IMG/VR virus record: IMGVR_UViG_3300038856_000075
Location: 1-63,550 of that record
Length of the DNA stretch: 63,550 nucleotides
Source: a virus
Taxonomy: Duplodnaviria > Caudoviricetes
Direction: 5' to 3' (one strand)
Shown: one piece after another, positions 24,954-53,833 of the stretch
Layout: each line of letters begins with the position of its first letter
Numbering within the stretch: the first letter of the stretch is position 1
The notes under the pieces: generated by a model
Database searches by the model: none
What the model was told of the DNA's origin: nothing
Seen by the model: the letters and a program-made list of their open reading frames with translations, nothing else
Program-made: the position numbers and the translations under genes

Positions 24954-27575
24954 TTAAATCTGATCCCAGGCGAAAGTTAAGGTCTCGGCAGCCAAAAGAC
25001 CCCTAGTGGCGCCCACTTCCACTTCCATCACCAGGACCAAGAAGTCGCCGATATATTCGCTCGGAGATCCCTGGGTATAGGGCCCGGGAAAGTGGAAATC
25101 CAGATCGATGGGCGAGGCCGCGGTCGTGCTGAAAAGATCCTGCATGGCTGATGTGGGAGAGCCAGTCGAAGGGTACTCAGGTGGGTCAAAGGCTTCATTC
25201 GGAACGGCCGGCGCCACATAGCCCGCCGAAGTGGCATACCAGATTTTCTCGGTTTCGGGTGATTGTCCTTGGAAACCCTGCCCATCCGAGTAGGCGCGCA
25301 GATTATCGATCTGCGTATAGGCCTGCCCATTGTCGCGAAGGCGAAGGTATTTCTGGTAGGAGTATTCCTGGCCGGACGTTGGCACGATGAGGGGGGCGCT
25401 GGTGTCCAGAGTCGCGTCGTCGGCATTTTTGAAGCGAACACTATCCGACGTCTTGTCGGTAGGTGTTCCTGGGGCGGGGCCGTTCAGTTCGATAATACTA
25501 ATGGTGCCACCGCCGCCGGCGCTCGTCTCCGGCGGCGTCAGCCCGGCCGTGGTGTCGATCTGCACCCAATCCACGGCCCCGTTCGGACCTGACACGCCCT
25601 GGATATTTATGACGAAATTCGTCGTCGTGCGGTACACGCCAACAGCGGTGGCCTCGGTCGTGTCCAGGACGGTCTCGGCGTCGAGCGACAGCGTGATGTC
25701 GCCCGTGAGCCCGTTCCAGGTCATTATGGCAGTGTGATATGCGCCATCGAACGGGTTGGCGGTGGGAACGGAGCCGTCATAATTCAGTCGGGACTGGCCC
25801 TGTAGCTCTAGGCTCGCTCGTAGCGCGCCCGTGCCCAGGACCGTCAGGCTCGGGCATTGCGCGCCGCCGTCGATTATGACCCCTCCCGCCGACGAGTCGT
25901 ATTTGAACCGGACCTGCATACGGAGCATCTGGAAGCCGGAAATCCAGGTGTCCGCGAACGAACCGAAGGCCACCCGTGGGTAGGACGCGCTTCCCGGCAC
26001 GAACGTCGCCGCACGGTTTGGCCCGCCCTCTACGTCCTCGTACGCTTCTGTGCCGGTGAACTCCCATACGGCCTGATCCGGTGGCTTGCCGACGATGCCC
26101 GCCGAGGGCACGGGGTTGAAGCTGCTCAGCACGTCATCGGCGAAATCCAGCCGGAAGATGTTGTAGTGATCCAGCCGGATGGATCGGGTCAGCCCATCAG
26201 CCGTGATGGTGTATTCCCCCGCTTCGGCATAAACGTGCGTCGGTTGGTCCTCGGTCGAGGTCTTTCCGTTCCCAAAGTCCCACGTCCCGACGCTCTGCAA
26301 CGCCTGTGTCGCGTAATTGCGCACTGCGAAGTCGCCTTGCAGCGCTGCGTGCTGACGGTGGTAGGCCGTGAAGTCAATGTAATTGGTCGGGGCCATGCTG
26401 GGTATTTGCGCGCCGCGCGTCTGCGTCTTGCCCGGCAACACGTCGTACTTGGTGATGTCGCGCACCAGTTCGGCCCCTATCGGGTCCACCAACCACCTGT
26501 CGAAGTAATCCGGCGTGGCCGGGAAAAGATTGTTGATGACGGTGTTGCCGGTGCCCTCGTCAAGCACGGAGGTAATCGGCCTGGCGACGATGTTCTCCTG
26601 CACCACGTTGGCATCCGCCCCGGTGCCCTCGCCCGAGAGCGTTATGCCGGGCCGCGCTTGATCGTTGGCGAACTCTTGATTACGGCGGAAATGGACCAGC
26701 GTGTTGTGGTCGATTACGCATTTGTCGCAATTGCCAATTGCAATCCCTTCCGCCGCATTAAGGTGAATGATGTTGTCGTGGATCAGCCACCCAACATGAC
26801 GACCGGAGGCGGGGTTCTCGAAAAATATGCAATTGTTGTCCGTCTGGCCGGCGGTTTCGGTCGTGGTGTTCAAGGACCAGAAATGGTTCTCGTAAATTTC
26901 ACAGTCTAGGCTGCCTCTGCCCACCGACGAGCCGGACCCGCTCTGATAGAAATCAGCATGAGCGCCCAACGGAGGAAAGCTGCCGTTGTTGAAGTTGCGC
27001 CGAACGATCAGCCTGATCTGCCCGGACTGCTGGAAGAAGCCGTCGCCCTCGCGGTCGAGGATTTCGTTGTCTTCGATGATACAGTCCGTGCAATCGTCAA
27101 TCGTGATGCCCGTCTGGACGTCCTGGATGATACACGAGGCGACGGAACAGCGGACGCACTCGCCCGCGTTGTAGCCAATGCGGACGCCGCTGATGGGCTT
27201 GTTGGGCGACGGTGTCCCGGCGGGCGTGCTCTTTATCAGGCACCGCTTGATGTGGGTGTCGATGCACTTGAACATCTCGACGCAGAACCCGACCCCCGTC
27301 GTGTTGCCGCCGTCAAGAATTTCGACGGTTCCTCCAGTGACGATGGACGCCCCATCGACGGTGAGGAAGGTCCACCCATCAATGCTGATCTTGGTGAACG
27401 TCGCCGTGACGCCGGTATCCGCCCGAATTACAACCTCGCTGCCGTAGGTCTGAGGGGTTGCAGGCGTCCAACTTCCGTAGCTGCCGTCCGTCGTAAGGGT
27501 AACGGTATCGCCACCCGACGACGCGGCCAGCGCGGTGTCGAGTTCGGTGGTATCGGCGGCGGTGCGATCAGTCAT
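24954..27575 (-). CDS. Beta-helix (pectate-lyase-like) + PKD + LamG-like protein with a C-terminal domain paralogous to gene 52162..52722
   Basis: Parallel beta-helix repeats with HADFYQ and I.DNII, WDFGNG...PTHVYAEAGEYTI PKD, DGAYHTAIMTWNG LamG-like, GGGG linker, then 182-aa paralog. Confidence 0.85.
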   Translation of the reverse strand: MTDRTAADTTELDTALAASSGGDTVTLTTDGSYGSWTPATPQTYGSEVVIRADTGVTATFTKISIDGWTFLTVDGASIVTGGTVEILDGGNTTGVGFCVEMFKCIDTHIKRCLIKSTPAGTPSPNKPISGVRIGYNAGECVRCSVASCIIQDVQTGITIDDCTDCIIEDNEILDREGDGFFQQSGQIRLIVRRNFNNGSFPPLGAHADFYQSGSGSSVGRGSLDCEIYENHFWSLNTTTETAGQTDNNCIFFENPASGRHVGWLIHDNIIHLNAAEGIAIGNCDKCVIDHNTLVHFRRNQEFANDQARPGITLSGEGTGADANVVQENIVARPITSVLDEGTGNTVINNLFPATPDYFDRWLVDPIGAELVRDITKYDVLPGKTQTRGAQIPSMAPTNYIDFTAYHRQHAALQGDFAVRNYATQALQSVGTWDFGNGKTSTEDQPTHVYAEAGEYTITADGLTRSIRLDHYNIFRLDFADDVLSSFNPVPSAGIVGKPPDQAVWEFTGTEAYEDVEGGPNRAATFVPGSASYPRVAFGSFADTWISGFQMLRMQVRFKYDSSAGGVIIDGGAQCPSLTVLGTGALRASLELQGQSRLNYDGSVPTANPFDGAYHTAIMTWNGLTGDITLSLDAETVLDTTEATAVGVYRTTTNFVINIQGVSGPNGAVDWVQIDTTAGLTPPETSAGGGGTISIIELNGPAPGTPTDKTSDSVRFKNADDATLDTSAPLIVPTSGQEYSYQKYLRLRDNGQAYTQIDNLRAYSDGQGFQGQSPETEKIWYATSAGYVAPAVPNEAFDPPEYPSTGSPTSAMQDLFSTTAASPIDLDFHFPGPYTQGSPSEYIGDFLVLVMEVEVGATRGLLAAETLTFAWDQI

Positions 27576-27582
27576 TTACCCC

Positions 27583-27678
27583 TCACCGTCCCCCGCCATG
27601 GGCGAGCCATACGAGGGTGAAGAAGACGCTTGCGATAACGAAGGCCAGAACGATGCCGATGATCCAGACCCATGTCAT
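27583..27678 (-). CDS. Small membrane peptide (31 aa)
   Basis: MTWVWIIGIVLAFVIASVFFTLVWLAHGGGR; GGAGG RBS. Confidence 0.55.
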   Translation of the reverse strand: MTWVWIIGIVLAFVIASVFFTLVWLAHGGGR

Positions 27679-27687
27679 GACCCCCTC

Positions 27688-27897
27688 CTAGCTCGCGCGG
27701 ATTTGTGCCATCAGCGCGTCGATCTCGGCGAGTTGCAGGGCCACTTCCTCGGGCGTCGGGTCGCGGCCGGCCTCGATCATGGCCTGCACCCTGGCGCGGG
27801 CGGCGTCATAGGACGCCTTACGGGATTGATCCTTGATGGCGGTCTCGGCGACGATATCGACGAGGCCGAGGATCAGGGGGAGATAAGAGACGGGCAT
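27688..27897 (-). CDS. Hypothetical lysis-module protein
   Basis: 69 aa, AGGAGA RBS, follows lipoprotein gene. Confidence 0.65.
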   Translation of the reverse strand: MPVSYLPLILGLVDIVAETAIKDQSRKASYDAARARVQAMIEAGRDPTPEEVALQLAEIDALMAQIRAS

Positions 27898-27907
27898 TGG
27901 GTTCTCC

Positions 27908-28237: not shown

Positions 28238-28238
28238 G

Positions 28239-28568: not shown

Positions 28569-28569
28569 G

Positions 28570-29142: not shown

Positions 29143-29146
29143 AGGC

Positions 29147-29377: not shown

Positions 29378-29472
29378 TCTCCTTGGGTTATAGCCGGGAT
29401 GGGCAGTTGCAGTCCGTCTATGCTGACGCCTTTTTTCAGTCGCATGTCATGATCTCCGTGCTATACTGCCGC

Positions 29473-29627: not shown

Positions 29628-29655
29628 TGATTCATTGTCGCATTCAGGGAGCTCC

Positions 29656-30924: not shown

Positions 30925-31644
30925 TCAAGCCTGAATGAAGCGGTGGTCGATGTCCCAAGTCTCGCCGCCTGGGTCCAGAATCCTCAGCCGAGGCGAGTCG
31001 GCCGATGCGCCGTCAGTACTGTGGCCGCCCAGGGTCGCCGCAGTGCTAAAATGATGGATCATCGGGAAAAAGCTGTAGGCATTGAGCGTCACGTTGGTCG
31101 AGTTAATACCTTGGGTAGATGCCGTGCCGGTCTTCAGTTCGGCTCGGCCCACGGCTGACGCCGCGATGAAGGCTTGCGTAACGGAGTCGGTCGTGAGCTC
31201 GGTCAGGCCGAGTTGGAACTGGGTTCCGTCATAAATCAGCGGAACCACCCTGCCGGCGATAAGCTCGCCTCCGGTCAAGGCCGTGAGGGATCCGCCCGAA
31301 AACATCTGGATGTCCTTGTTGCCGAGGCCGTTGACGTTTATCGTCGTCGCGCCCGTGTTGTTGCTGGCGATCTCGACCCATACCACCATGCGGTCGGAAT
31401 ACGCGACAAGCGCGGGGCTCAGCGTCAGCGTGATCGCGTTTCCCGTGCCGCCGGCCAGTCCCGCGAGCACGCCGTTCGATTGCAAGTCGGTGATCGTCGG
31501 CACCTTGAACGCGCCGCCGGCGGTCACGCCGTCGTGGAAAACGAGGCGGCCGGTGTCGGTCTCGTAGGAGATTTCGTTCTGCACGCCGGTGAACGACGCC
31601 ATCTCGGCGGCGGTGCCCCGGCGCAGCAACCGTTCTGTGGCCAT
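30925..31644 (-). CDS. Tail fibre with Mtd-like N-terminal domain
   Basis: LRRGTAAE..SFTG...EI.YETDT.RLVFHDG.TAGG; NTGATTINVNGLG. Confidence 0.8.
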   Translation of the reverse strand: MATERLLRRGTAAEMASFTGVQNEISYETDTGRLVFHDGVTAGGAFKVPTITDLQSNGVLAGLAGGTGNAITLTLSPALVAYSDRMVVWVEIASNNTGATTINVNGLGNKDIQMFSGGSLTALTGGELIAGRVVPLIYDGTQFQLGLTELTTDSVTQAFIAASAVGRAELKTGTASTQGINSTNVTLNAYSFFPMIHHFSTAATLGGHSTDGASADSPRLRILDPGGETWDIDHRFIQA

Positions 31645-33665
31645 CAGGTAATGCTCCCGTCATCGATGGTGACTTGCGGCGAACCGACATCCGTGATCAA
31701 GCCGTCGTCGGCGGTCGGACTGCCGGCCACCTCGGTGATCAAGCCGTCGTCGGCGTTGACCTCGGCAGCGGTCGAGCCGATTTCGTACATCAATTCTGTC
31801 TGCCAGACCGACGCTCGAACGCCGAGCGAGTTGACGCCCCGGATGCGGAAATCGACGAACTCGCCGAACTGGAACACGGCGACGGCGACGAAGGTGCTCT
31901 TCTGGTTACCGGCGACGAAGAACGACGGATTCCACGACGACGACCCCGACCGCTTCCATTGGATCTCGAGCTGCCCGCCGGATGTCACGAAGACATCGGC
32001 GGGCGACGTCCAACTCATGGCGAGCTGATAGATTTTGTCGCTCGCCAGCGTCATCGACGTGATCGTGCGCGGCGTCAGGCTCGTCGGGTTGGCGACGGCA
32101 AACGGGTCGGGCAAGGTCGACCCCGGCGGCACGCTGACCTCGTTCTCTTCCGCCGTCCACGCGAAAACCGTCGAATCGTATTCGCGCAATTCGAGATCGA
32201 TGCCGAGATAGACTTCGCCGGCCTCGTCCCGGTCCTGGGCGAATTTCCAGGTGGTGACGAGAAACGTCTTGGCTTCCCAGCCGAAGCGGTCGTAGGTCAC
32301 GGCGATGGTGTCGCCGACGCGGATCCGGAACGCGGTGAGCTTGCATGGCAGAATCACGCTGATCTGGCGCCGGACCTTCTCCATCTCGATCTTGGCGATC
32401 CGCTGCGCGGCGGCCGACCGGATCTGAAACGGTTGGGGAAAGTCGAACCAGATGCGTTCGCCGTTGTCCTCGTCCTCGTAGGTCGTCGAGGTGATTGGCG
32501 GATAGTCGGTCGCCTGCCAGTTGTGCGATGGCGAAACGTAGACGCCCTTGACGGCGTTGAACAGATTTCGCCGCGTGATCCGGGTCGTGATGCGCGGATG
32601 GCCACGGAGATCCGATGCCGTGATCGGGACGGTCGCGGCGGAAAACGACCCCGCCAATATCGACCACACGCCGCCGGAATAGATGAAGTCACCGGCGAAC
32701 GAAGTCCGAAGGTTCTCGATCGCCTGGTCCGGAGATTCGGCCGTATCCATCACACCGTTGGCGGTGTAACGAAGCTCTTGCGTCTCCGGCGATCCCGCGA
32801 GAGCCACCGCTTCGTCGCTGGTATCGGCCGCGGTCGAAAAGCTGTCCATGTCGATTGCCGTATCGGCGACGTTGACGCCGTACCGCCGGACGACCGTTCC
32901 GGTCCCGTCCTTCGCCGGCACGCCGCGAAGATAGTCGAGGGCGACCAACGCGGCATTGTCGGACCACCCCCAGGTGTCGGGGTCGTCGGGGTCCTGCGTC
33001 GGCGAGCCCCGCATGTCGTATATCTTGCGCCCCTTGACGACGGCAGAGATGTTGGGGAGCTGCAAAAACTTGTCGGTGTCGAACTCGAGCCTGACATAGA
33101 GATAGCAGGCGCCGCCGCCCTTGACGGTCGAATCCGCGCTGGTCTCCGACGTGAGATCGCTGTCGGCGGTCTGGTTGTAGGCGCCGAGGTGCTTTTTGAT
33201 GCGGACGAGATTGGCGTATTTGCCCGTGGTGACGATGCCGTTGGCGTCGAGATCAGCGGCGGTTATGACCACGTCATCGAGCCAGACGTCGCCGATCTCC
33301 TGATAAGGACCGCCCACGCCGAGCGTTCCGACGACATGGAGGAACTGGTTGCTGACGCCCGTCGATTCGACAAAGTTGATGAACGCGCCGACCCGCGCCT
33401 GGCCGTAGATCACCTTGTGGGTCTCGATGGCTTGCCGGACGTTGATGGTCCTCGACGACAGATTGGCCAGCGAGTTGAAATCGGTTCGCGGCGGTTTCGG
33501 CGTAAGGAGGCGGCTCACACCGCCGACGAGACCGCTGATGATAAACGTATTCGAGAGGAAGATCAGCCCTGAGATCACGAACGCGCTGGCGCCGACGACG
33601 ATACCGACGCCGGCCGTGACGCCGGCGGCGATACCGACGGCGATCAAGGATCCCGAGATCGCCAT
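31644..33665 (-). CDS. Tail tip/central fibre protein (Phage-tail_3/J-like)
   Basis: VIYGQARVG, PNISAVVKGRK, WSDNAAL..LDYL, RYTANG, FNAVKGVY, AQRIAKI. Confidence 0.9.
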   Translation of the reverse strand: MAISGSLIAVGIAAGVTAGVGIVVGASAFVISGLIFLSNTFIISGLVGGVSRLLTPKPPRTDFNSLANLSSRTINVRQAIETHKVIYGQARVGAFINFVESTGVSNQFLHVVGTLGVGGPYQEIGDVWLDDVVITAADLDANGIVTTGKYANLVRIKKHLGAYNQTADSDLTSETSADSTVKGGGACYLYVRLEFDTDKFLQLPNISAVVKGRKIYDMRGSPTQDPDDPDTWGWSDNAALVALDYLRGVPAKDGTGTVVRRYGVNVADTAIDMDSFSTAADTSDEAVALAGSPETQELRYTANGVMDTAESPDQAIENLRTSFAGDFIYSGGVWSILAGSFSAATVPITASDLRGHPRITTRITRRNLFNAVKGVYVSPSHNWQATDYPPITSTTYEDEDNGERIWFDFPQPFQIRSAAAQRIAKIEMEKVRRQISVILPCKLTAFRIRVGDTIAVTYDRFGWEAKTFLVTTWKFAQDRDEAGEVYLGIDLELREYDSTVFAWTAEENEVSVPPGSTLPDPFAVANPTSLTPRTITSMTLASDKIYQLAMSWTSPADVFVTSGGQLEIQWKRSGSSSWNPSFFVAGNQKSTFVAVAVFQFGEFVDFRIRGVNSLGVRASVWQTELMYEIGSTAAEVNADDGLITEVAGSPTADDGLITDVGSPQVTIDDGSIT

Positions 33666-34123
33666 CAGCCGATCCGCTTATAATATATCCGCTCCATCGG
33701 CTCGTAGCCGAGTCTGACGAACAGCGCCTCCCGATCAGACGCGATTTTTTGGTGGTAGCCGACGACCTGCACTCCGAACCGCTTGAGCGCGCGCTCGGCG
33801 GCCATCAGCATCCTGGCGCCGTTGGCACCCCCGCGGTGCGCCGGGTGCAGGTAGTGCGCCGTGTCCCGCGCCAGCCGGATCGGCCGGTAATGGAGCATCG
33901 CGGCGACATTGTGGGCGACGTAGCCGACCAACTCGTCGCTGTCGTCACGCGCCGTCATCAGGAACAGCGTGCCTTGCGCTTCCATGTGTCGGTAGCGCGG
34001 CCAGTCGATGTCCAGCGGCAGTTCGCCTTTGAACATGCCCAATTCCTCGAACGCGAGTTCCGTGAGCGTCAGGCATTCGGGCTCGACGTCGGCGAGGCGC
34101 TCGACCTGAAACGTGAGCGTCAT
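33665..34123 (-). CDS. GNAT acetyltransferase
   Basis: LDIDWPRY...LVGY...HYLHPAHRGGANGARML...LFVRLGY. Confidence 0.8.
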   Translation of the reverse strand: MTLTFQVERLADVEPECLTLTELAFEELGMFKGELPLDIDWPRYRHMEAQGTLFLMTARDDSDELVGYVAHNVAAMLHYRPIRLARDTAHYLHPAHRGGANGARMLMAAERALKRFGVQVVGYHQKIASDREALFVRLGYEPMERIYYKRIG

Positions 34124-34683
34124 CAGGTGCGCCCCCACTTGAGCACGACGTCCTGGATGGTCGAGACCTGATCGAAGAAGGTGTCGCCGGTGAAGTATTT
34201 CTTGTGGTCTTCGGGCGTATACCGGAACACCCGCGGACGCTCAAGGTCGATCAACTCGTTTTCGATGGTCATCGAGATCGTCGCCGTCGTCTCCTGTTCA
34301 TCGATCTCCATCACGTCCATGCGGCCCGAGAACACGAGCGTGGGATCGCCGGTCAGTTTCGCGTCGACATCGAGCGTGCCGAAATAGAACAGCGCCGGCC
34401 GTCCTTGATAGTTCTGGTTGAAGGCGATCGCGAGGATGTCCGACGGAATGCCCGATAACACGAACTTGACCCCGGCCGCCCGGACGCGGATGGTTTCCTC
34501 GACCGGCGACACCTTGCCGAAGTTGCCGACGCCCGCCCAGGTCTTGCCGTCCCACGACAGGTTGCCGAACCCGGTCCAGAAATTGACGGTGCCGCCACTG
34601 AATTGCATCTCGACGAGAAAGATCGGATAAAGCGACTCGGCGAGAGTATCGGCCTCGACGCCGGCATCGACGGCCCGGCTCAT
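34123..34683 (-). CDS. Minor tail protein (lambda gpL/DUF2163-like)
   Basis: FWTG.G.L.W.GKTW.G.G...LSGIP...YQGR...FSGRMD.M.I. Confidence 0.85.
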   Translation of the reverse strand: MSRAVDAGVEADTLAESLYPIFLVEMQFSGGTVNFWTGFGNLSWDGKTWAGVGNFGKVSPVEETIRVRAAGVKFVLSGIPSDILAIAFNQNYQGRPALFYFGTLDVDAKLTGDPTLVFSGRMDVMEIDEQETTATISMTIENELIDLERPRVFRYTPEDHKKYFTGDTFFDQVSTIQDVVLKWGRT

Positions 34684-43059: not shown

Positions 43060-43841
43060 GCTTCGTTCAGATCCCTCCATGCAGTTCCGTCCCCGATCTC
43101 GACCGCTGTCCACTGGTTCGCGGCCAACCACGCCGCCCATTCGGCCCGTCCGTCCGGGCGCGGCGGATCCTCGATCCGCGACAGATCGCGGCCGGCCATC
43201 GGCGATGCCGCGCATTTTGCCGTCACGAACGCCGGAACCCCCGCCAGGAGGGCCTCGACGGCGACCCGCGAATCGAACGTCACCACCGCCCAGGCCAGCG
43301 CGAGCGCGACCTCGAACGGCATTTCACCGGGCTTGCGCAGGGGCTTGTCACGGACGATGATCGGGCGGTCCGTGTATTGGCGCAGCGACGCCATCGTCTC
43401 GCTCAGCCACCGGTCGCGGGTCAGCCCGCCGCCATGCAGGTCGAAGTGATAGGCCGATTGCAGGCAGACGAGAATGTCGCGGCCGTTGCGGTGCCAGGGC
43501 CGGATGGGCGGCATATACCGGTCCCGCCGGTCCGCATCACCGCGCCCGATCTCCGTCACTTGCCGCGCGTTGCGCGTGATCCGGAATATCTCGGTCGGTT
43601 GCCCGTCCGCCTTCGCCGGCCCCGGCGCATAGCCGTTGTCGCCGTAGTAGTAGGTCGTCCGCGTCCCCTGGGCCTGGGCCCACAGCACTCTCTGGCGCGG
43701 CGTGATGCCGTAGAAGAACGCCTCGCCGGGAAACAGTGTCTTCGCGTTCTGCGCGATGCGCCCGGCGCAGCCCGACGCGAACAGCCTGGCGAGACGGCGC
43801 GATTTCCGCTTGGCGGAATCGACGTAGCACCAGACGGTCAA
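43056..43841 (-). CDS. Capsule-synthesis (KpsS/KpsC-like) glycosyltransferase, paralog 3
   Basis: YGDNGY...RITRN...PWHRNG..ILVC...RPIIVRDKP...VVTFDSRVAVEALLAGVP. Confidence 0.7.
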   Translation of the reverse strand: MTVWCYVDSAKRKSRRLARLFASGCAGRIAQNAKTLFPGEAFFYGITPRQRVLWAQAQGTRTTYYYGDNGYAPGPAKADGQPTEIFRITRNARQVTEIGRGDADRRDRYMPPIRPWHRNGRDILVCLQSAYHFDLHGGGLTRDRWLSETMASLRQYTDRPIIVRDKPLRKPGEMPFEVALALAWAVVTFDSRVAVEALLAGVPAFVTAKCAASPMAGRDLSRIEDPPRPDGRAEWAAWLAANQWTAVEIGDGTAWRDLNEA

Positions 43842-44647
43842 CCAAGTAACTTCCCGAAGGCGGTTCCGTCCTCGAACTCGCGAGTCGACCACTGCGCCCA
43901 TGACAGTTCCACGAACGCGGGCGCGCGGTCGCCCATGAACGGCTTCTCGACCACCGCGATCCCGCGCCGCGCCGCCTGCCGGGCGACGATGGCGGGGCCG
44001 CAGAATATTGCCGGGATGCCAGCGAGAAGCGCGTCGGTCGCCGCGTTCGACGTGAATACCACCACCGCCCAGGCGTCGGCGAGATGCTCGGCGATGGGCT
44101 CATCGAAATCCAATACGCGGTCGTAACCGCCCTTGGGCATCACCGCCCGGCGCTTGGGATGTGGCCGGTACCAGAGGGGCCGATCGGTGGCCGACCGCAG
44201 TTCCCGCGCGATGTCGTCCGGCCATGTGTTCGGCATCGCCATCTCGTTGTAGCCGAAGCCGCGCTGGCCGCAGACTAGGATGTGATCGCCGTCCTCGCGC
44301 CATGGCGCCACAGGGATATCCCAAGACTGCCACCGTTCGGGACTGCCGACGCGCCAGCGGCCGAAGCCGTTGTGCCCGCCGAGCGCGCAGGCGAAGTATT
44401 TCTCGCCCCCGATATTGCGGATGTAGGCTTCCTCGAACACGAGGGCGTCGCCGCCCGCCGCGATGAAGCGCCGCGTGGCATCGTAAGATGGCCCATAGGC
44501 GTTCCACGTCAGCACCAGGTCGTCGCGCTGCGGCTGCTGGCTGGCGCCCTCGATCACATCGTAGCCGATGGCGCGGAGGCCGGCCTTGAAGCATTCGTGC
44601 CGGCCGTCCTCGAACCGCGACGGCAGCAGGCTGAATGCCCGCTTCAT
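43838..44647 (-). CDS. Capsule-synthesis (KpsS/KpsC-like) glycosyltransferase, paralog 2
   Basis: PWREDGDHILVCGQ...YRPHP...VVFTSNAATDALLAGIP...WAQW. Confidence 0.7.
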   Translation of the reverse strand: MKRAFSLLPSRFEDGRHECFKAGLRAIGYDVIEGASQQPQRDDLVLTWNAYGPSYDATRRFIAAGGDALVFEEAYIRNIGGEKYFACALGGHNGFGRWRVGSPERWQSWDIPVAPWREDGDHILVCGQRGFGYNEMAMPNTWPDDIARELRSATDRPLWYRPHPKRRAVMPKGGYDRVLDFDEPIAEHLADAWAVVVFTSNAATDALLAGIPAIFCGPAIVARQAARRGIAVVEKPFMGDRAPAFVELSWAQWSTREFEDGTAFGKLLG

Positions 44648-45336
44648 TCGCCGGCCCAGCCGAAGAAGTAATCGCCCTTCATGCCGGGCCGGAGTTCGAC
44701 CGCGCCCCAGTCGCGCAGCAGGTCAAGTGCGGCGCCGGGCGTCTCGCCGTAGCGCTGCTCCCAGCCCACGCTTTCGACGATCACGGTCGGGCGGGAGTCG
44801 CGGATCGTCTTCTCGGCGCCCATCAGCACCTTCACCTCGTAGCCCTCGACGTCGATCTTGATCAGGTCGACGTTTCTGAGGCGCAGGCTGTCCAGCGGAC
44901 GGACCTCGGTGACGACGTCGTCGCCCTCGTAATCGGGTGCCGCGGATTCCTCGCCGATATGCGCGCGGCCGGATTGGGCGTTGCCGCTTTTCATCAGGAC
45001 CGTCGCCTTGCCGTCGCCCAGCGCGTAGCGGTGCAGGTCGAGGCGGTTGGCGTTCGCGCCCGTGATATTGCGCATCAGCACCTTGCAATGGGCCGGCATC
45101 GGCTCGAAGGCGTGGACCTTGCGGAAGATGTCGACCATCCACATCGACCATAAACCGACATGCGCGCCGGCATCGACGAATACGCGCCGACCCTTGGTGA
45201 CCTCGAGCGCCGCCTTCATATGGTGCCAGCCGAGGGCGGGACGGCCGTCGAACACGGGGCGCTTGTATCTCTTGCACGGCGCCGTCAGGGCCGCGGCGTA
45301 GTGCTCGTCATCGGCGGGCAGCCAGATGCCGTTCAC
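44644..45336 (-). CDS. FkbM-family methyltransferase (second copy)
   Basis: FVDAGAHVGLWS, HAFEP, VDLIKIDVEGYE; GTG start overlapping the upstream TGA. Confidence 0.9.
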   Translation of the reverse strand: MNGIWLPADDEHYAAALTAPCKRYKRPVFDGRPALGWHHMKAALEVTKGRRVFVDAGAHVGLWSMWMVDIFRKVHAFEPMPAHCKVLMRNITGANANRLDLHRYALGDGKATVLMKSGNAQSGRAHIGEESAAPDYEGDDVVTEVRPLDSLRLRNVDLIKIDVEGYEVKVLMGAEKTIRDSRPTVIVESVGWEQRYGETPGAALDLLRDWGAVELRPGMKGDYFFGWAGE

Positions 45337-46112
45337 GCGCTTCGAAGGTCTATCCACGCTTTGCCGCTCCTGAACTCGTCCAGTGTCCATTGATTCGCCG
45401 CCAGGACCGCCAGCCATTCATGGCGGTTGTCCGGGTAGACCGGCCGCTCGACCTCCCGGATGTTGGTGCTCCCCACCACGGCAGCGGGCGTCGCCCCGGT
45501 CACAAAGACCGGCACGCCGGCGACGATCGCCTCCGTGGTCACGTTGCTGTTGTGCGTGACGAGGCACCACGCGCCCGCTAGGTGTTCGTCAAGCGGGGGC
45601 TGGTATCGGTCGAGGCGTCCGTCGCCCGGCTTGAATCTGATGACGATCTTCCGGTCAGTCATCTGGGCGAGAACGCGCTTGGTTTCGTTCAGCCATTCGA
45701 CGACGTCGAAATGCCAGAACTTGCCGTAGTACGCGATCGGCGGGCAGACCAGCACATAGCCTCCGGCCTTGCGCCACGGCGCGATTTCGATGCCGAGCCG
45801 GTCGAGCCTGTCGAAGTCCGGCCGCCCCCCGCCGTCGCACAGGAAGGCGTTGCGCGTGATCCGGAAATAGCCGTCGTAATGGCCCGGGCCCATGTATCCG
45901 TTGTCGCACAGATACCAGTCGCGCCCGGCCATGATGCACCTGTCGCGGATCAAGTGGTTGTGCCGGGCGATGCCGTAGAAGAACGCCGGGTTATCGTCCT
46001 TCCTCAGCCCGTCGCCCGACCACACCATCCCTGCCCCGGTGCCGGCCTTCATCGCCGAGCAAATGATCTCCGACTTCGGGTGGCCGGTGCAGTAGATCGT
46101 GAGCCCGGTCAT
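45333..46112 (-). CDS. Capsule-synthesis (KpsS/KpsC-like) glycosyltransferase, paralog 1
   Basis: LCDNGY...RITRN...PWRK.G..VLVCPP...LVTHNSNVTTEAIVAGVP...LAANQW. Confidence 0.7.
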   Translation of the reverse strand: MTGLTIYCTGHPKSEIICSAMKAGTGAGMVWSGDGLRKDDNPAFFYGIARHNHLIRDRCIMAGRDWYLCDNGYMGPGHYDGYFRITRNAFLCDGGGRPDFDRLDRLGIEIAPWRKAGGYVLVCPPIAYYGKFWHFDVVEWLNETKRVLAQMTDRKIVIRFKPGDGRLDRYQPPLDEHLAGAWCLVTHNSNVTTEAIVAGVPVFVTGATPAAVVGSTNIREVERPVYPDNRHEWLAVLAANQWTLDEFRSGKAWIDLRSA

Positions 46113-47083
46113 GGGGCGGCGAAGAATTCCTCGGGCGTCTTTACCGGCATCTTCCCCTCGGGCCGAATGGTCGGATTGTCGTCGACCAGGAATTCCGGCT
46201 TGCCGAGCGCGATGGCACCGATCAGCCCATTGCTCTTGACGAAGCGGCGCGCGTATTCGGTTCCCGTGCCCGACCACACGACGATTTTCGCCCCGTCGTC
46301 CAGCATGCGGCGGACCATAGCGATGCGCTCGAGCAGCGGATTGCCGCCGGCGGTGCCGCGATCGGTCAACGTGCCGTCGATGTCGATGTAGACGGGCCGG
46401 TCGTTCATGGGCTCGAAAATGTCATGCAGGTTGACCTTCTTGAAGTACCCGAGCTTGCTTCCGGGCGTCGCGTTCAGGCATTCGATTCCCAATTCGTCCA
46501 GCGGCTTGACCAGGGTATCCATCAGCGGCGTCACGATGTTGCGGTAGAACCCGCCGGGCTTGTGAACCGTCTTCCGCAGGTCGTGCGGATGATGGCCGAA
46601 CCAATGACTCTTGCCGTCGCGCCATTCGTCGTCGAAGTCGAAGCCAATCAAAACGATCCGCGCCACGCCGGTATGCACGGCGATGTTGATCACCTGATGG
46701 CCGGATTGGCGGCCAGTTCGAATGCCGTTCGGCTTGAGGCATAGCCCGCCGTTGTCCTTGGCCGAGTCGTTGCGCAGTACCTTGACCGACGGGTCGACCT
46801 TGGTCACCTCGGCCGAGTTCTCGATCGTCACCTTGAGGCCGGCGAACCGCTTGATGTCGTCGGCGTTCGGCCAATTGCCCCACCAGCCGCTTTGTTCGTT
46901 GAACCACCGCGCGTCGGCGAAGTAGAGCATGTCGGCCCAGGGCGCGAGGCGGAAGGTGTCGTTGACGCAGATCAGGCGCGCCCGGCCGCGGCAGAAATCG
47001 ACCTGCTCCTGCGTCGGAAAGCCGTTGCCGACGATGACCACCGTCTCGCCGGCCCACATGCGGGGAACGGACCAAATGTCCAT
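46109..47083 (-). CDS. Maf/DUF115-like (sialyltransferase-fold) domain fused to HAD phosphatase
   Basis: VVIVGNG...ICVND...AD.LYFAD...SG.Q.IN.A...G..RIVLIGFD...NATPGS; C-terminal YIDIDGTL...VWS...KP...VDD HAD motifs. Confidence 0.72.
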   Translation of the reverse strand: MDIWSVPRMWAGETVVIVGNGFPTQEQVDFCRGRARLICVNDTFRLAPWADMLYFADARWFNEQSGWWGNWPNADDIKRFAGLKVTIENSAEVTKVDPSVKVLRNDSAKDNGGLCLKPNGIRTGRQSGHQVINIAVHTGVARIVLIGFDFDDEWRDGKSHWFGHHPHDLRKTVHKPGGFYRNIVTPLMDTLVKPLDELGIECLNATPGSKLGYFKKVNLHDIFEPMNDRPVYIDIDGTLTDRGTAGGNPLLERIAMVRRMLDDGAKIVVWSGTGTEYARRFVKSNGLIGAIALGKPEFLVDDNPTIRPEGKMPVKTPEEFFAAP

Positions 47084-48615: not shown

Positions 48616-49275
48616 TCATCGCAACCTCTCGACCCTGTCTGCCTGCCAGATAATCGCCGATCCCGAAGCCGCTCGCAAGCCATCCGCGGTCAGATCCTCA
48701 CCCCGATGCTCATAGGCATGGGCCACATACCGCAGAATGCCGTCGCGCAGGCTTTGCGGCACGTCGCCCTGGTCGTCACCGTACCCGGCGACGTAAACGA
48801 TCTCGATGCCGTTCGCCGCCCGCGTCGTGATCGGCATGGCGGCGGAGTTCCGCAGCACCAACCGGCCCGGGGTCGATGCCGTGTCGACAAAGTAGTTGGC
48901 CGACGCATACGCGGTGCCGCTGTCGGCGTCGTCGTAGGTCGTGATCGAGGTCACCGATTGCAGCGGCGGATGGTTGAGCTCGATCGCCCGCAGCGGCGTG
49001 AACAGCTGCGTCTCGGCACCGTCGCGGTAGCCCTCCCATATATCCTCGCTGGCGTGGTCGGAAGGCCAGTAGTCGAGATATGCCGTCCACGTCTGCGTGA
49101 TCAGCGCCCGGCCGGTGAAGGCTTCGCATTGCAGGATCGCCGTCCGCAGCAGCCCCTCGATCAGCGGGTCGTCGGCCACGTCGCTGTCGGGGATGCGAAG
49201 ATGCGCCTTCGCCTCCTGCAAGCCGACGGCGAGCTTGGCCGGTTCCGATGTCCGGCTTTCGCGAAGCCTTCTCAA
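48616..49275 (-). CDS. Head-tail connector (gp6-like)
   Basis: V.L.EAKAHLRI...E.FTGRALITQTW...PLQSVTSI.YD...IVYVAGYG...VP. Confidence 0.92.
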   Translation of the reverse strand: MRRLRESRTSEPAKLAVGLQEAKAHLRIPDSDVADDPLIEGLLRTAILQCEAFTGRALITQTWTAYLDYWPSDHASEDIWEGYRDGAETQLFTPLRAIELNHPPLQSVTSITTYDDADSGTAYASANYFVDTASTPGRLVLRNSAAMPITTRAANGIEIVYVAGYGDDQGDVPQSLRDGILRYVAHAYEHRGEDLTADGLRAASGSAIIWQADRVERLR

Positions 49276-51005
49276 TGAATCCTCCTGGCGGGCGGCACCC
49301 GGAACACGCTTCGCCCGTAAGCCTTGAAGGTGCGGCGTGTCGATGGGCCCAAAGGCTGCACGACTGGTTGCAGAAACGCGTCCATCGACGCAATGGCACT
49401 ATTGGTCCCAAGCACCGCCGAATCCAAGGTCGCCGTGACCGTGCCGCGAATGCCGAGCATGGCGTCGAGGCTGGCGAACAGAGAGACGCCGATGGCCAAG
49501 GCTCCATCGAGGCTGGCGGCGATCGACTTCGCGTCCTGCAACGCAGCGTCGAGGCCGGCGGTGCGGATCGACGCGACGGCGGCGGCCAGAAACGCATCCA
49601 TCGACGCCGTGGCCGAAACCGCGCGCGACAACGCCGCATCGAATGAAGACTGCGCCGTCGTCGTCCGGGCGAGCGCGGCGTCGACGGACGCCTGAGCGGT
49701 GACCCCGCGCGCAACCGCCGCGTCCAGCGACACAGCCAGCGTCTTCCGTGCCTGCAACGCAGCGTCAAGCAGGGCGATAATCTGGCTGCCGCTGGACAGG
49801 AACCCATCGAGGGACGCGGAAACCGTTTTCCCCGCCAGCAGCGCAGCGTCGATGCTCGCGAACGCGCTTGCCTGGATCGCCACGGCGGCGTCGAGATTGG
49901 CCTGCGTCGTCTTGGTGGCGGACACCACGGCGTCGACCACCGCCGCCGCCGTCATGGTCCGGGTCACGGCCGCGTCGAGCGAGGCGGTCAGCGTCTTGGC
50001 GGCCTGCAAAGCGGCATCGATACTCGCCGTGGCCGTCATCGTCGTGGCACCGGCCGCCTGGAGGTTCGCGTCGAGGGACGCGGTGGCGGTGCGGAGAATC
50101 TGCAATGCGGCGTCGAGTTGCGCGGTGCCGGTCTTCCCGTCCTGCAACGCGGCGTCGACCGACGCGGTGGCCGTCACGATTTCGGCGAGATACGCTTCCA
50201 GCGTCATCGTCAGCGTATCTGTCGCTTGCACCGCGGCGTCCACGGACGCGGCTGCGGTCACCGCCTGCTGCACGGCCGCGTCGACAGTGGCGGACGCGGC
50301 GCGCTCTATGGCAATGGCCGCGTCCAGCGACGCCGTGACGCTGTTTGCGGCGCTTCCGACCGACACCTGCGCGTCGAGCGAGGCTGAGGCGGTGCGCAGC
50401 CGCTGGAGGGCGGCATCGATGGAGGTCGCCGCGCTCATGGCCTTCTGCACGATGGCGTCGACCGAAGCGGCGGCGCTGCGCTCGAGCGCGATGGCGGCGT
50501 CCAGACTGGACGTTATCGTCTGTGTCGCCCCACCCGGCGTATAGGTGATGATGACGTCGAAACAGTCGACGTCGATGTCGACGTTGCCCGGCATGCCGGA
50601 CTGGGTGGTCTGGATGAATATCCCCGCCCCGTCGAGTTGGGCCGCTGTCCAGTCGCTGTTCCAGCCCACGTCGTTGAGAGTGCCGGAATTTCCCCAGGTT
50701 GCCGCCGGCAGGAACGCCTGGCCGGTGCCCTGTAAGCTGCCGCCGATGGTCAGCCAGATCGTGAGCCCGTCATCGCCCGGCCGACTCGGTGCCTGCGCCC
50801 GAGCGACGATCGAGACGTTGGTGACGGTATCGCCGTCGGTGATCGCGGAGTCTGTAAGCGCCAGTTCGAGCGTGTCGCCCTCGGTGGCGCCGTTATGCAG
50901 TCCGGTGTCGTCGGCGGTCGCGATGGACTCGAAGATGTCGGCGTCGGTGCCGGACCACAACCCCTTGCTGGTCACCGACGAGACGTTGAGGGTTTCGGTT
51001 GCCAT
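49272..51005 (-). CDS. Fibre-like protein with ~27 tandem 14-aa repeats
   Basis: Globular N-domain followed by xxxTxxASLDAAxQ repeats. Confidence 0.8.
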   Translation of the reverse strand: MATETLNVSSVTSKGLWSGTDADIFESIATADDTGLHNGATEGDTLELALTDSAITDGDTVTNVSIVARAQAPSRPGDDGLTIWLTIGGSLQGTGQAFLPAATWGNSGTLNDVGWNSDWTAAQLDGAGIFIQTTQSGMPGNVDIDVDCFDVIITYTPGGATQTITSSLDAAIALERSAAASVDAIVQKAMSAATSIDAALQRLRTASASLDAQVSVGSAANSVTASLDAAIAIERAASATVDAAVQQAVTAAASVDAAVQATDTLTMTLEAYLAEIVTATASVDAALQDGKTGTAQLDAALQILRTATASLDANLQAAGATTMTATASIDAALQAAKTLTASLDAAVTRTMTAAAVVDAVVSATKTTQANLDAAVAIQASAFASIDAALLAGKTVSASLDGFLSSGSQIIALLDAALQARKTLAVSLDAAVARGVTAQASVDAALARTTTAQSSFDAALSRAVSATASMDAFLAAAVASIRTAGLDAALQDAKSIAASLDGALAIGVSLFASLDAMLGIRGTVTATLDSAVLGTNSAIASMDAFLQPVVQPLGPSTRRTFKAYGRSVFRVPPARRIH

Positions 51006-51271: not shown

Positions 51272-51273
51272 GC

Positions 51274-51576
51274 CTAACGCCTGCCACCGCGCAACGTGAT
51301 CGACCAAATTTCCGTTCGCCCTTGCGCCGTGACGACGCGGTTGCTGAGGCGATAGATCTGCCCAGCGAGCAGGTTGCTGACAAAGACGCTGGCGATGTTC
51401 CCGGATATCTGGTCGCCGGACAGGATCGGCTCGGAGGGCGACCCCGGATTCTCCGGCTCGATGGTCCACGCCGAGGTCGACAGCGTGTCGCTGGGCGAGC
51501 CGGCTTCGTCGAGATAATCGGACCAGTCGTAGCTATAGTCCGTCGTCGCCTCGAGATCGTGCAGGACGTAGGGCAT
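51274..51576 (-). CDS. Fibre adaptor-like virion protein
   Basis: D.EA..DY..DW..YL...DT.S.S.W...G..Y.L.N.V.T..GRT. Confidence 0.7.
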   Translation of the reverse strand: MPYVLHDLEATTDYSYDWSDYLDEAGSPSDTLSTSAWTIEPENPGSPSEPILSGDQISGNIASVFVSNLLAGQIYRLSNRVVTAQGRTEIWSITLRGGRR

Positions 51577-51876: not shown

Positions 51877-51883
51877 CGTCCTG

Positions 51884-52153: not shown

Positions 52154-52161
52154 GTGTCTCC

Positions 52162-52722
52162 TTAAATTTCATCCCAAGCAAACGTCAGCGTCTCTGCCGT
52201 CAGCAGCCCGTTGGTCGCCCCGACCTCGACCTCCATCACCAGGACCAGGAAGTCGCCGATGAACTCCAGCGGCGAGCCGGGGGTGTAGGGGCCGGGGAAC
52301 GCCCCGTCCATGTCGATGGGCGAGGCCGACGTCGTGGCAAAGAAGTCCAGCATGGCGACGGTCGGCGATCCGGTGTTGGGGTATTCGGGCGGGTCGACGG
52401 TTTCGGTCGGGACTTCGGGCGCGGTGTACCCGGCGCTGGTCGCGTACCAGATCTTCTCGGTTTCCGGGCTCTGGCCCTGGAATCCCTGGCCGTCCGAATA
52501 GGCGCGGATGTTGTCGATCTGGGTGTAGTCATCGCCGTTGTCGCGCAGTCTGAGATACTTCTGATAGGAGTACTCGCGGTCGGCCGTGGGCACGATCAGC
52601 GGGTTGTTGAGATCGACCGTGGCGTCGTCGGCGTTCTTGAAGCGGATGGTGCCGCTGGTCTTGTCGGTCGGCGAGCCGGGAGCGGCGCCGTTGAGTTCGA
52701 TGATGCTGATCGATGCGGGCAT
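52162..52722 (-). CDS. Putative head fibre/filament subunit (paralog of the C-domain of 24954..27575)
   Basis: Strong RBS, beta-rich, EYSYQKYLRL...ETLTFAWDEI; located in head module. Confidence 0.8.
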   Translation of the reverse strand: MPASISIIELNGAAPGSPTDKTSGTIRFKNADDATVDLNNPLIVPTADREYSYQKYLRLRDNGDDYTQIDNIRAYSDGQGFQGQSPETEKIWYATSAGYTAPEVPTETVDPPEYPNTGSPTVAMLDFFATTSASPIDMDGAFPGPYTPGSPLEFIGDFLVLVMEVEVGATNGLLTAETLTFAWDEI

Positions 52723-52733
52723 CTATCCTCTCC

Positions 52734-53006
52734 TCAGTAGAAACCGACAAGGGCGCCGGCGGTCGTCGAGACCGTGGGGCTGCCGGTCGTTGTCTCGGCC
52801 AGGATCTGCTTGGCCAACAGGTCGTGGAAGCCGACGGGGACGTTCTGCAACACCACCTCGTCGTCGTTCGGCGTCACGGCGACGATGTGGCCGGAAATGC
52901 CGACATAGACCCGCCGCGTGTTGGAGGCGAACTCGCTCGCGCCCGGCGTGATGGCGAAGCCGTTCGAATTCCGGACATCGGCGCCGGTGGACGCGGCGTC
53001 GGCCAT
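52734..53006 (-). CDS. Head spike base protein (RcGTA Rcc01079-like)
   Basis: GFAITP.......TRRVYVG.SG.I.....D..V...NVPVG...TTA..LV. Confidence 0.7.
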   Translation of the reverse strand: MADAASTGADVRNSNGFAITPGASEFASNTRRVYVGISGHIVAVTPNDDEVVLQNVPVGFHDLLAKQILAETTTGSPTVSTTAGALVGFY

Positions 53007-53332
53007 CAGACCGCCTCCCCGGCGGGCTCAGATGGTTCCGCTTCCTTGGCCTGCCGCCCGCGGCGGCGCGGCGAGGGGTCGTCTTCGGTCTTGTTCTCCG
53101 GGGCGGCGTCGAGGGCCTTGTTCTCGGGCGCGGCCTCGACCGCCTTCCCGGCCTGGATCTCCGGGTCGGCCGGCAACACCCTGTCCGCCAACCCCGCGTC
53201 GATCAGCGTCGTGAACAGGGCCGTTTGCCACGGCTTGTCGCCCTCGTATTTCTGCCCGGCGATGAACCGGGTCGTCGCCGAGCCGTGTTCGTTGGCCGCG
53301 ACGGGAACGGTCTTGCGCATCTTGATTTTCAT
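53006..53332 (-). CDS. Hypothetical head-module protein
   Basis: Low-complexity tail with AAPENK repeated twice. Confidence 0.7.
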   Translation of the reverse strand: MKIKMRKTVPVAANEHGSATTRFIAGQKYEGDKPWQTALFTTLIDAGLADRVLPADPEIQAGKAVEAAPENKALDAAPENKTEDDPSPRRRGRQAKEAEPSEPAGEAV

Positions 53333-53339
53333 GCGATGA

Positions 53340-53366
53340 CGGGCGGAGGTTGTTTACCCCCGCCCG
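53340..53366. other. Intergenic hairpin after capsid/decoration genes
   Basis: CGGGCGGAGGT-tgttt-ACCCCCGCCCG near-perfect stem without a U-tract. Confidence 0.45.
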
Positions 53367-53389
53367 CTCCCTCTCAGTCAGGTTGTGGA

Positions 53390-53833
53390 TTACGTCGGCA
53401 CGCCGGAATGGCGGTCGCGGGTCAGCACGCCGATCGCCACCGGACCACCGTTGGTGAGGCCGGTGCCGACGAGAGCCGCTTGGATATACCGCTTGTCGCC
53501 GCGGTATCCCGCCTTGAGCGTGTCGAATTTGCTGGTGCTCGTGGCAACCACGCCGGCGGCGACGGTCACGGACGAGTCCACGACGACGTCGACGGCGTCG
53601 ACCACCGCGAAGGTGACGCCGTCGTCGGAATCGTAGAGCACCAGGTCCGCCTTGGCCGTGCCGACCGGCGAAGAGCCGAGTTCGTCGATCGAGCCGATGA
53701 GCGCCAGCACCTCGACGGCGACCGCCCCTTGCAGATCGATCGCGCCGGACGTGACCTGGTTGGGCGAGCCCGTGTTGGTGAGCGTGCCCTGCGCGGCCCA
53801 GGTCCAGGTGTGGCCATTGTGCATATCGTACAT
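53390..53833 (-). CDS. Capsid decoration/cement protein
   Basis: Immediately after MCP; IDLQG...L.DSDDG.TF..V...GYRG.KRYI. Confidence 0.75.
   Translation of the reverse strand: MYDMHNGHTWTWAAQGTLTNTGSPNQVTSGAIDLQGAVAVEVLALIGSIDELGSSPVGTAKADLVLYDSDDGVTFAVVDAVDVVVDSSVTVAAGVVATSTSKFDTLKAGYRGDKRYIQAALVGTGLTNGGPVAIGVLTRDRHSGVPT

Follow-up and report, generated by a model that had tools for sequence, protein, structure and literature searches.

The virus record IMGVR_UViG_3300038856_000075, which we analyzed whole and call the window, is a complete 63,550-bp genome with direct terminal repeats and a G+C content of about 63%. The window has no tRNA genes, and the INPHARED collection holds no near-identical phage record. 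Its virion genes form a module on the minus strand, in which a ten-gene sugar cassette is embedded (Table 1). The module opens with terminase, portal, protease, and an HK97-type major capsid protein (MCP; Pfam Phage_capsid, E 2.9e-69). A decoration candidate of 147 amino acids (aa), a 90-aa protein, a 186-aa protein, and a Gp77-like adaptor follow, and then a 577-aa Ala-rich repeat protein, an Ad1 head-tail adaptor, a head-completion protein, and a gp17-like tail-completion protein. After the cassette come the tail tube, chaperone, tape measure, distal tail, a 186-aa tail protein, a GNAT-like acetyltransferase, and the tail tip. The module ends with an Mtd_N fiber, lysis genes, and an 873-aa beta-helix/PKD protein. 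Here, we describe a tripeptide, Gly-Ser-Pro (GSP), that is concentrated in the virion proteins of this module, and a candidate protein O-glycosyltransferase of the cassette, an MptE/DUF115-like enzyme, whose close relatives accompany the motif in other genomes.

Table 1. Positions of the features discussed, listed in gene order along the minus strand
Feature	Position	Strand	GSP codons	Matches and remarks
Virion module	~62101 to 24954	-		
147-aa protein, decoration candidate	53390-53833	-	53762-53770	phrog_5707, E 4.9e-8; adjoins MCP gene
90-aa virion protein	52734-53006	-	52776-52784	phrog_12296 'tail fiber protein', E 1.2e-5
186-aa virion protein	52162-52722	-	52669-52677, 52363-52371, 52270-52278	One GQSP in addition
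Gp77-like adaptor, 100 aa	51274-51576	-	51493-51501, 51436-51444	Pfam PF23148, E 4.2e-15
577-aa Ala-rich repeat protein	49272-51005	-		
Sugar cassette, ten genes	47083-39279	-		
MptE/DUF115-like enzyme, candidate protein O-glycosyltransferase	46109-47083	-		Sialyltransferase-like domain (residues 1-225) and HAD-like domain
Paralogue 3, phage-specific ~270-aa family	45333-46112	-		Start at 46112 overlaps upstream stop codon (ATGA)
FkbM-family methyltransferase	44644-45417	-		Pfam PF05050, E 4.4e-19; TIGR01444, E 2.7e-26
Paralogue 2, same family	43838-44647	-	Residue 101	
Paralogue 1, same family	43056-43901	-		Aligns with paralogues 2 and 3
SIS-domain sugar-phosphate isomerase, GmhA-like	42457-43059	-		Pfam SIS_2, E 3e-14
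KdsB-like cytidylyltransferase (CMP-Kdo synthetase type)	41669-42460	-		Pfam CTP_transf_3, E 3.5e-33
GT9 (heptosyltransferase)-like protein	40752-41606	-	Residue 247	Pfam PF01075, borderline (22.4 bits, cutoff 22)
FkbM-family methyltransferase, second copy	39998-40768	-		Pfam PF05050, E 8.9e-16; TIGR01444, E 4.2e-22
GT8-like nucleotide-sugar transferase (lead)	39279-40010	-		phrog_28018, E 2.8e-49, no assigned function
Tail tube	38853-39266	-	39213-39221	N-terminal loop; Pfam PF06199, E 5.6e-22
Distal tail	34680-36002	-	35715-35723, 35691-35699, 35034-35042	
GNAT-like acetyltransferase	33665-34138	-		Pfam Acetyltransf_7, E 4.8e-4, under cutoff
Tail tip (J-like)	31644-33665	-	33000-33008, 32787-32795, 31716-31724, 31677-31685	phrog_5616, E 1e-79
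873-aa beta-helix/PKD protein	24954-27575	-	25155-25163, 25062-25070	Pfam Beta_helix, NosD, PKD

An earlier, sequence-only reading of this DNA had listed 17 GSP in eight structural proteins of about 2,650 aa, where about one would be expected by chance. All 17 are present at the positions claimed; the eight carriers total 2,646 aa, and the expectation from their composition is 1.02. To keep the carriers from being picked post hoc, we shuffled whole protein sets. The 25 virion-module proteins (7,573 aa) contain 17 GSP, compared with a mean of 2.09 (standard deviation, 1.43; maximum, 10) in 3,000 within-protein shuffles, whereas the 44 other, non-structural proteins (8,153 aa) contain none and 1.95 were expected. 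Thus, the claimed enrichment in virion over non-virion proteins was borne out. Across all 80 called proteins there are 19 GSP (shuffle mean, 4.62; maximum, 13; 1,000 shuffles). Of the 8,000 tripeptides, GSP is the most over-represented, whether one counts the virion set (Poisson p 8.5e-11; about 7e-7 after Bonferroni correction) or the full 80 proteins (p 3.0e-7). As the sequence-only reading had also stated, the motif does not occur in the MCP, portal, terminase, protease, or tape measure. The roughly four GSP that it placed outside the virion proteins are two in cassette enzymes, where the 11 sugar-related proteins have an expectation of 0.55, and two in the open reading frame (ORF) at 8370-9269. 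This 299-aa ORF is probably no real gene: its codon-position G+C pattern is wrong (0.78/0.61/0.55), and a more convincing ORF, at 8783-9394, overlaps it. The single GSP of the GT9-like protein is a conserved enzyme motif rather than a loop tag, since the string GSPCGM recurs in the homologue of locus L055.

The motif has a definite form. At 12 of the 17 sites it reads GSP[S/T], against 0.31 expected. Thr is no substitute for Ser: GTP is not enriched (2 versus 2.35 expected). One exchange of PGSPT for PGTPT between paralogues, previously reported, was found again by alignment. The 17 sites lie in 11 different 9-mers and use serine codons of both the TCN and AGY types. The variety of 9-mers indicates selection on the peptide and not on a DNA word, and it rules out a DNA-level repeat as the source of the excess. 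Two of the 17 are paralogous copies shared by the 186-aa virion protein and the C-terminus of the 873-aa protein, leaving 15 independent sites.

The enzyme whose relatives track the motif combines a sialyltransferase-like domain with a HAD-like C-terminal region of about 100 aa that has a DxDGT motif (HAD-IIB match weak, E 0.005). Its residues 24 to 224 match positions 8 to 174 of the 178 in the profile of phrog_4603, which is annotated as 'alpha-2,3-sialyltransferase' (E 4.7e-28). In the PDB, the best fold match of its AlphaFold2 model (predicted local distance difference test [pLDDT], 88.6) is human ST8SiaIII (5bo8/5bo9; E 2.4e-3; probability, 0.82 to 0.90; template modeling [TM] score, 0.36 to 0.44 across its chains and 0.37 to 0.41 at the top probability). 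The profile of the enzyme family returned only chance-level hits among PDB sequences. The 120 homologues listed range from 182 to 324 aa, mostly 200 to 240 aa. A length of 324 aa, with room for the HAD-like domain, was seen among them only in the window's enzyme and in P0001, which is 98% identical to it; the next longest listed is 288 aa, and longer forms were not searched for. A query of viral contigs with the single protein found nothing, and a query with the enzyme alignment found that at least 563 IMG/VR viral stretches encode a relative. The hosts named for bacterial and metagenome-assembled genome (MAG) contigs are mostly Alphaproteobacteria, with Beta- and Gammaproteobacteria as well; the closest copies, 39 to 48% identical, are carried by prophages in MAGs of Kiloniellales/Kiloniellaceae. 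The host of the window is probably an alphaproteobacterium.

We compared GSP counts between loci with and without this enzyme. The enzyme-seeded set, the best 79 of the at least 563 viral stretches, contains 190 GSP against 79.9 expected. GSP ranks 6th of 8,000 tripeptides in these loci and 2,387th in control loci, and the tripeptides ranked above it include motifs of the enzyme's own sequence. After dereplication, there were 168 GSP versus 68.6 expected with the enzyme and 40 versus 32.8 in controls (Mann-Whitney p 1.3e-4). The closer the enzyme is to the window's copy, the larger the excess (Spearman rho 0.41, p 7e-4): it is 3.27 times expectation at 150 bits or more, 2.71 times at 135 to 150 bits, 2.12 times at 120 to 135 bits, and 1.18 times below 100 bits. 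That any DUF115-like homologue brings the excess was rejected by this lowest group, in which only 3 of 20 MCPs contain GSP. Loci with a close enzyme homologue overall have 2.4 to 3.1 times the expected number. We replicated the effect in bacterial and MAG contigs, which contain 60 GSP against 19.4 expected at 36% enzyme identity or more and 52 against 38.4 below.

A matched control was built from loci seeded with the window's own MCP type, in which the enzyme-less set had to extend at least 9.5 kb downstream. The 14 enzyme-bearing loci of this MCP lineage contain 55 GSP versus 17.5 expected. In contrast, the 26 enzyme-less loci of the same lineage contain 36 versus 34.3 (1.05 times), and ten enzyme-less loci with 47 to 57% MCP identity contain 15 versus 12.5. 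GSP is therefore not equally frequent without the enzyme, one of the outcomes that would have refuted the earlier proposal. Ala-Ser-Pro (ASP) behaves in the same way, with 55 versus 24.6 expected with the enzyme (2.2 times) and 51 versus 49.0 without it (1.04 times); TSP and SSP are enriched in neither group. Thus, the motif is better written [G/A]-S-P in this lineage. Two loci of lower G+C content, L055 (40%; 5 GSP versus 0.86 expected) and L120 (51%; 6 versus 1.23), carry most of the cassette families, and they hint that the link between motif and enzyme holds outside the high-G+C lineage.

The sequence-only reading had paired GSP with the glycosylation cassette as a unit. That pairing survived for one gene, the DUF115-like one, and failed for the cassette as a whole. 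Many GSP-rich loci show the DUF115-like gene only, and in the 79 enzyme-seeded loci the enzyme is often the sole cassette family present. The genes flanking the enzyme in these 79 loci have tblastn matches to virion and cassette proteins.

We clustered the proteins of 102 close-enzyme loci to see which families carry the motif. GSP was present in 32 of 36 protease-MCP fusions, in 8 of 8 members of the 186-aa family (20 GSP), in 7 of 15 and 9 of 13 members of two tail tube families, in 7 of 15 and 7 of 11 members of families A and B of gp17-like proteins, and in 16 of 40 Ad1 adaptors. The portal has 4 GSP versus 6.66 expected, the enzyme itself has 3 versus 4.65, and several connector clusters have none. 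When classes of locus were compared, GSP was found in 34 of 51 MCPs, 9 of 13 and 6 of 14 tail tubes, 7 of 12 tail terminators, and 17 of 40 Ad1 adaptors with a close enzyme. With a distant enzyme or none, it was found in 7 of 38 and 6 of 61 MCPs and in 0 of 6, 0 of 4, 0 of 5, and 0 of 2 tail tubes. Portal, terminase, and head-closure proteins did not differ between the classes. The MCP fusions have the motif in one of three places, which are largely alternatives: an inserted loop of eight residues, the very C-terminus, and another loop. A W-G-x-x-G-S-P-x tail ends the protease-MCP fusions of L057, L060, L071, L086, L088, L104, L108, and L151/L167, and MCPs with such a tail mostly have no internal GSP loop, and vice versa. 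In L071, L075, L086, L087, and L091, proteins with collagen-like G-X-Y repeats are encoded near the enzyme, and a few of the GSP are part of the repeat and not loop tags.

We then compared the window's carriers with their homologues, taking coil state, low pLDDT, and insertions as marks of exposure. Insertions hold most of the window's GSP sites. In the 186-aa virion protein, two GSP are in insertions of 13 and 3 residues that were not found in 44 shorter homologues. All three of its GSP and its GQSP are predicted to be coil in the AlphaFold2 model (pLDDT 79.3), and residues 114 to 121, the longest insertion, have a pLDDT below 50. In this model, the motifs are thus not buried in regular secondary structure, and the suggestion that they sit in loop insertions was upheld by alignment for most sites. 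In eight enzyme-bearing homologues, G, S, and P are each invariant (1.00) and the flanking columns score 0.12 to 0.38. Long-form 186-aa proteins with two or three GSP occur in 7 of 7 enzyme-bearing loci, besides the window, and in 0 of 15 confidently enzyme-less and 0 of 28 ambiguous loci. The C-terminal domain of the 873-aa protein (24954-25505) is 80% identical to the 186-aa protein and contains 2 GSP.

The 186-aa model is a beta-sandwich, and its best PDB matches, which are weak (E 0.019; TM score, ~0.3 to 0.4), are donor-strand fiber subunits: the Pyrodictium CanA cannulae, TasA, and the type 1 pilus Fim. Judged from this predicted fold and from the copy on the 873-aa protein, the domain may form a polymerizing head or tail filament.

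Insertions hold both GSP of the Gp77-like adaptor; of its 13 enzyme-bearing homologues, 10 have GSP at site 26, and the insertion is missing from the sole enzyme-less homologue, L016. All 10 enzyme-bearing homologues of the tail tube have Ser-Pro in the N-terminal loop, compared with 6 of the 31 that lack the enzyme (Fisher p 7e-6), and on this larger control set we revised the view that the tail-tube Ser-Pro is simply ancestral. None of the six enzyme-less tail tip homologues contains GSP, and site 220 of the window's tail tip is inside an insertion. Enzyme-less homologues of the distal tail, whose start codon is at 36002 and not at 37199, have no GSP at the window's positions. About 250 aa of this protein form a LamG/concanavalin-like insertion (Pfam Laminin_G_3, E 3.1e-14), which is missing from its homologues in L002, L003, and L051. 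In the 90-aa protein, TTGSPTVS had been read as an insertion relative to an Rcc01079-like protein; the only two close homologues found retain GSPT without an indel, and the one that is 69% identical does so amid differing flanks. For the 147-aa protein, 2 of 11 enzyme-bearing and 0 of 7 enzyme-less homologues have any GSP.

The remaining cassette genes are co-oriented with the enzyme gene and tightly packed, with 3 terminator-like sites versus 5.4 expected. The top NCBIfam match of the KdsB-like protein is a KdsB model (177 bits; cutoff, 193), and all 13 of its PDB sequence hits at an E of 1e-5 or less are synthetases of cytidine monophosphate-3-deoxy-D-manno-oct-2-ulosonic acid (CMP-Kdo; best E 1.8e-29, full length). 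The GmhA-like isomerase matches NCBIfam gmhA (E 2.8e-31), under its cutoff. Paralogue 1 has no Pfam, PHROG, or NCBIfam hit, and the paralogue family has no PDB sequence match, a profile search having given chance-level hits only. In the Atlas clusters neighboring the paralogues, PF05159 (Capsule_synth) is on 17 to 18% of members. As a lead from these similarities, the three paralogues are possibly capsule-synthesis (KpsC/KpsS)-like; an assignment to the KpsC/KpsS beta-Kdo transferases (PF05159) found no Pfam or PDB sequence hit. The GT8-like protein has Atlas neighbors that bear the name glycosyltransferase, and 12% of members carry PF01501.

The computations show that the motif is in excess, is confined to virion proteins, sits in loops and insertions, and co-occurs with the enzyme, and they identify the enzymes to the family level. 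From these results, we infer a modification of the serines, an enzyme responsible for it, a donor sugar, and an order of steps. On balance, we favor the view that outer virion proteins are O-glycosylated in the cytoplasm, with their [G/A]-Ser-Pro loops as the acceptor sites. The proteins concerned would be the 186-aa subunit and the copy of it that the 873-aa protein carries, together with the Gp77-like adaptor, the decoration candidate, and three tail proteins (tail tube, distal tail, and tail tip). Initiation would most likely fall to the DUF115-like, sialyltransferase-like protein. By analogy with the flagellin glycosyltransferase Maf, it would transfer a CMP-activated 2-keto-3-deoxy sugar acid to serine. 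CMP-Kdo is the most plausible donor because of the KdsB-like neighbor, because a Maf enzyme accepts CMP-Kdo, and because of the parallel with the lipopolysaccharide (LPS) core. The phage's KdsB-like synthetase, SIS isomerase, and HAD-like phosphatase domain may boost the donor supply. The three paralogues, the GT9-like and GT8-like transferases, and the two FkbM methyltransferases would then extend and methylate the glycan. A fuller form of this scheme, which we put forward only tentatively, is that a minimal Maf-like transferase of about 210 residues, widespread among phages of Gram-negative hosts, reads [G/A]-Ser-Pro as a portable address in any exposed loop or C-terminal tail and O-links Kdo, drawn from the universal CMP-Kdo pool of the host, to capsid, neck, and tail proteins. 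In this phage, the cassette would then build a methylated, LPS-core-like oligosaccharide, and the virion would mimic the inner core of its host.

Several results weigh against glycosylation of these loops by the DUF115-like enzyme. The association is not independent of phylogeny and is confounded by descent. Loci seeded with MCP fusions have 41 GSP versus 29.9 expected with the enzyme and 18 versus 18.6 without it, a difference that is not significant (p 0.18). In the MCP-fusion tree, the GSP-bearing capsids are essentially one clade, which leaves four independent contrasts and a sign test without power. Single linkage by gene sharing merged 91 of 101 loci and gave no split into independent lineages. 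The motif also occurs without the enzyme: besides the six enzyme-less tail tubes with the loop Ser-Pro, of 43 homologues of the 186-aa protein from enzyme-less or ambiguous loci, 12 have GSP at a different, conserved site, and some enzyme-less distal tail homologues have it elsewhere in the protein. The enzyme likewise occurs without the motif. Sixteen of the 79 enzyme-seeded loci have no GSP, the enzyme-bearing window relatives L059 (2 versus 1.69 expected) and L072 (0 versus 0.45) show no clear excess, and the window's own Ad1 adaptor and tail terminator, like its MCP, contain none. Some of the GSP counted come from other motifs, namely DDGSP of GT2 proteins, GSPCGM of GT9-like proteins, and collagen G-X-Y repeats. 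The automatic gene caller is approximate, recovering 15 of the 19 GSP of the window and calling no enzyme ORF in 22 of the 79 loci. Finally, the assignment of the enzyme is weak. Its match to Pfam PF01973 (MptE-like/DUF115; 16.8 bits, E 0.006) does not reach the gathering threshold of 34.6, and the fold search of the PDB gave no hit at an E of 0.001 or less. A precomputed PF01973 hit is present on 30 of the 120 homologues listed, none of which has a functional name ('hypothetical protein' where named). By its similarity scores, the family is a distant relative at the edge of the PF01973 model.

The single clade, the matched MCP-fusion test, and the enzyme-less tail tubes and 186-aa homologues would all fit an explanation by descent, in which GSP is a turn-forming loop motif inherited in one lineage, its serines are unmodified, and the enzyme acts elsewhere, for example, on host lipopolysaccharide or capsule. 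We consider this explanation unlikely, although it is the strongest of the alternatives. The excess arises jointly in several unrelated families of each genome but not in the portal, terminase, or enzymes, and within the MCP family the motif moves between loops and the C-terminus. Its three residues are invariant amid variable loops, and close enzyme-less MCP relatives show no excess. The enzyme is flanked by virion and cassette matches in 79 loci, and lysogenic-conversion genes usually lie elsewhere than among virion genes.

A somewhat less probable alternative accepts the motif as a true modification or recognition site but gives it another reader: a different cassette transferase (a paralogue or the GT8-like protein), the GNAT-like protein, or a host proline-directed enzyme. 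Proline-directed enzymes commonly recognize Ser-Pro, and homologues of the paralogues (paralogue 2 at 43838-44647 among them) and of the GT8-like protein are found with the enzyme in 17 and 11, respectively, of the 79 loci; the weakness of the DUF115-like assignment leaves room for such a reader. However, L086, L066/L067, L061, and L056, which are among the most GSP-rich loci, show the DUF115-like gene only among the cassette families, and L042 and L043 have the GT8-like gene and no loop GSP in the 186-aa protein. That the excess is chance, a DNA-level repeat, or an effect of composition, as the G+C content and the Gly-, Ser-, and Thr-rich virion proteins might suggest, is rejected by the shuffles, the corrected p value, the diversity of 9-mers, and the absence of GSP from the non-structural proteins, and we regard it as very improbable indeed.

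The favored reading, O-glycosylation of the GSP loops, resembles several known systems in part. PMC11339370 describes Maf as a central DUF115 domain with N- and C-terminal domains, reports that Clostridium botulinum Maf accepts CMP-Kdo with an addition of 220 Da per site, and notes that flagellin glycosylation has no known conserved sequon. The phage enzyme has weak or indirect hits to the same domain family (PF01973/DUF115). Like Maf, it is a soluble enzyme; its targets would be Ser residues in surface loops of a self-assembling structure, modified in the cytoplasm with CMP-activated ulosonic acids as donors, and donor-synthesis genes adjoin its own. Unlike Maf, it is a minimal 225-aa domain (with the HAD-like addition) that has neither the N- nor the C-terminal domain of Maf, it is encoded amid virion genes, it would act on many unrelated virion proteins, and a three-residue motif tracks it. 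By architecture, it is not a Maf, but by analogy it may work like one.

Sialyltransferases use a CMP-sugar donor, which fits the KdsB-like neighbor, and the phrog_4603 and ST8SiaIII matches point the same way. The TM score is low, however, there is no sequence-level match in the PDB, and the acceptor here would be a protein serine and not a glycan. LPS inner-core and capsule-linker Kdo pathways offer a further parallel, with KdsB, GmhA, GT9, GT8, and KpsC/S as counterparts of the cassette (the GT8- and KpsC/S-like members being Atlas leads); KpsC and KpsS are beta-Kdo transferases of the capsule-linker Kdo pathway, according to PMC10148158. The phage cassette differs in having no lipid-carrier or export genes and in lying inside a virion operon.

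In mycobacteriophages, virion proteins reportedly carry C-terminal acceptor tails, a finding said to come from Freeman and colleagues in Cell Host Microbe in 2023. There, phage-encoded glycosyltransferases decorate capsid and tail proteins, as stated in the passages citing that work in PMC12582341 and PMC10568470. The window likewise carries glycosyltransferase-like genes. Its probable alphaproteobacterial host, its enzyme family, its probable donor, and its short motif scattered over many proteins set it apart. In the literature within reach, which mostly leaves out subscription journals, we found no description of phage DUF115-like virion glycosylation or of a GSP sequon.

Phage particles are usually regarded as bare protein. 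The window points to a second virion glycosylation system, unrelated to that of the mycobacteriophages, in proteobacterial phages, with a very small transferase, an apparent three-residue address, and an enzyme family that is common across IMG/VR. If GSP is a true sequon, virion glycosylation would become predictable from sequence alone, and lineage-specific loop insertions in capsid and tail proteins would be explained. The motif would also offer a short O-linked glycoengineering tag for a soluble enzyme, which may use the CMP-Kdo that E. coli makes. If the minimal-transferase, Kdo-based scheme is true, a Maf-type enzyme would have its first defined sequon, and the motif would serve directly as a tag for coating proteins with sugar in E. 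coli. A glycan coat would bear on phage-host recognition and on the immune recognition of therapeutic phages.

Two further genes of the virion module may be connected with these proteins. The GNAT-like gene lies between the tail-tip gene and the 186-aa tail gene, which is an unusual location; its product may be part of the modification system, with either the glycan or a virion protein as a possible target of acetylation. In many viral contigs (L008, L012, L015 to L019, L021, L024, L025, and others), the 577-aa Ala-rich repeat protein has homologues in the same fetched loci as the 186-aa family, which suggests that the repeat protein and the 186-aa virion protein work together.

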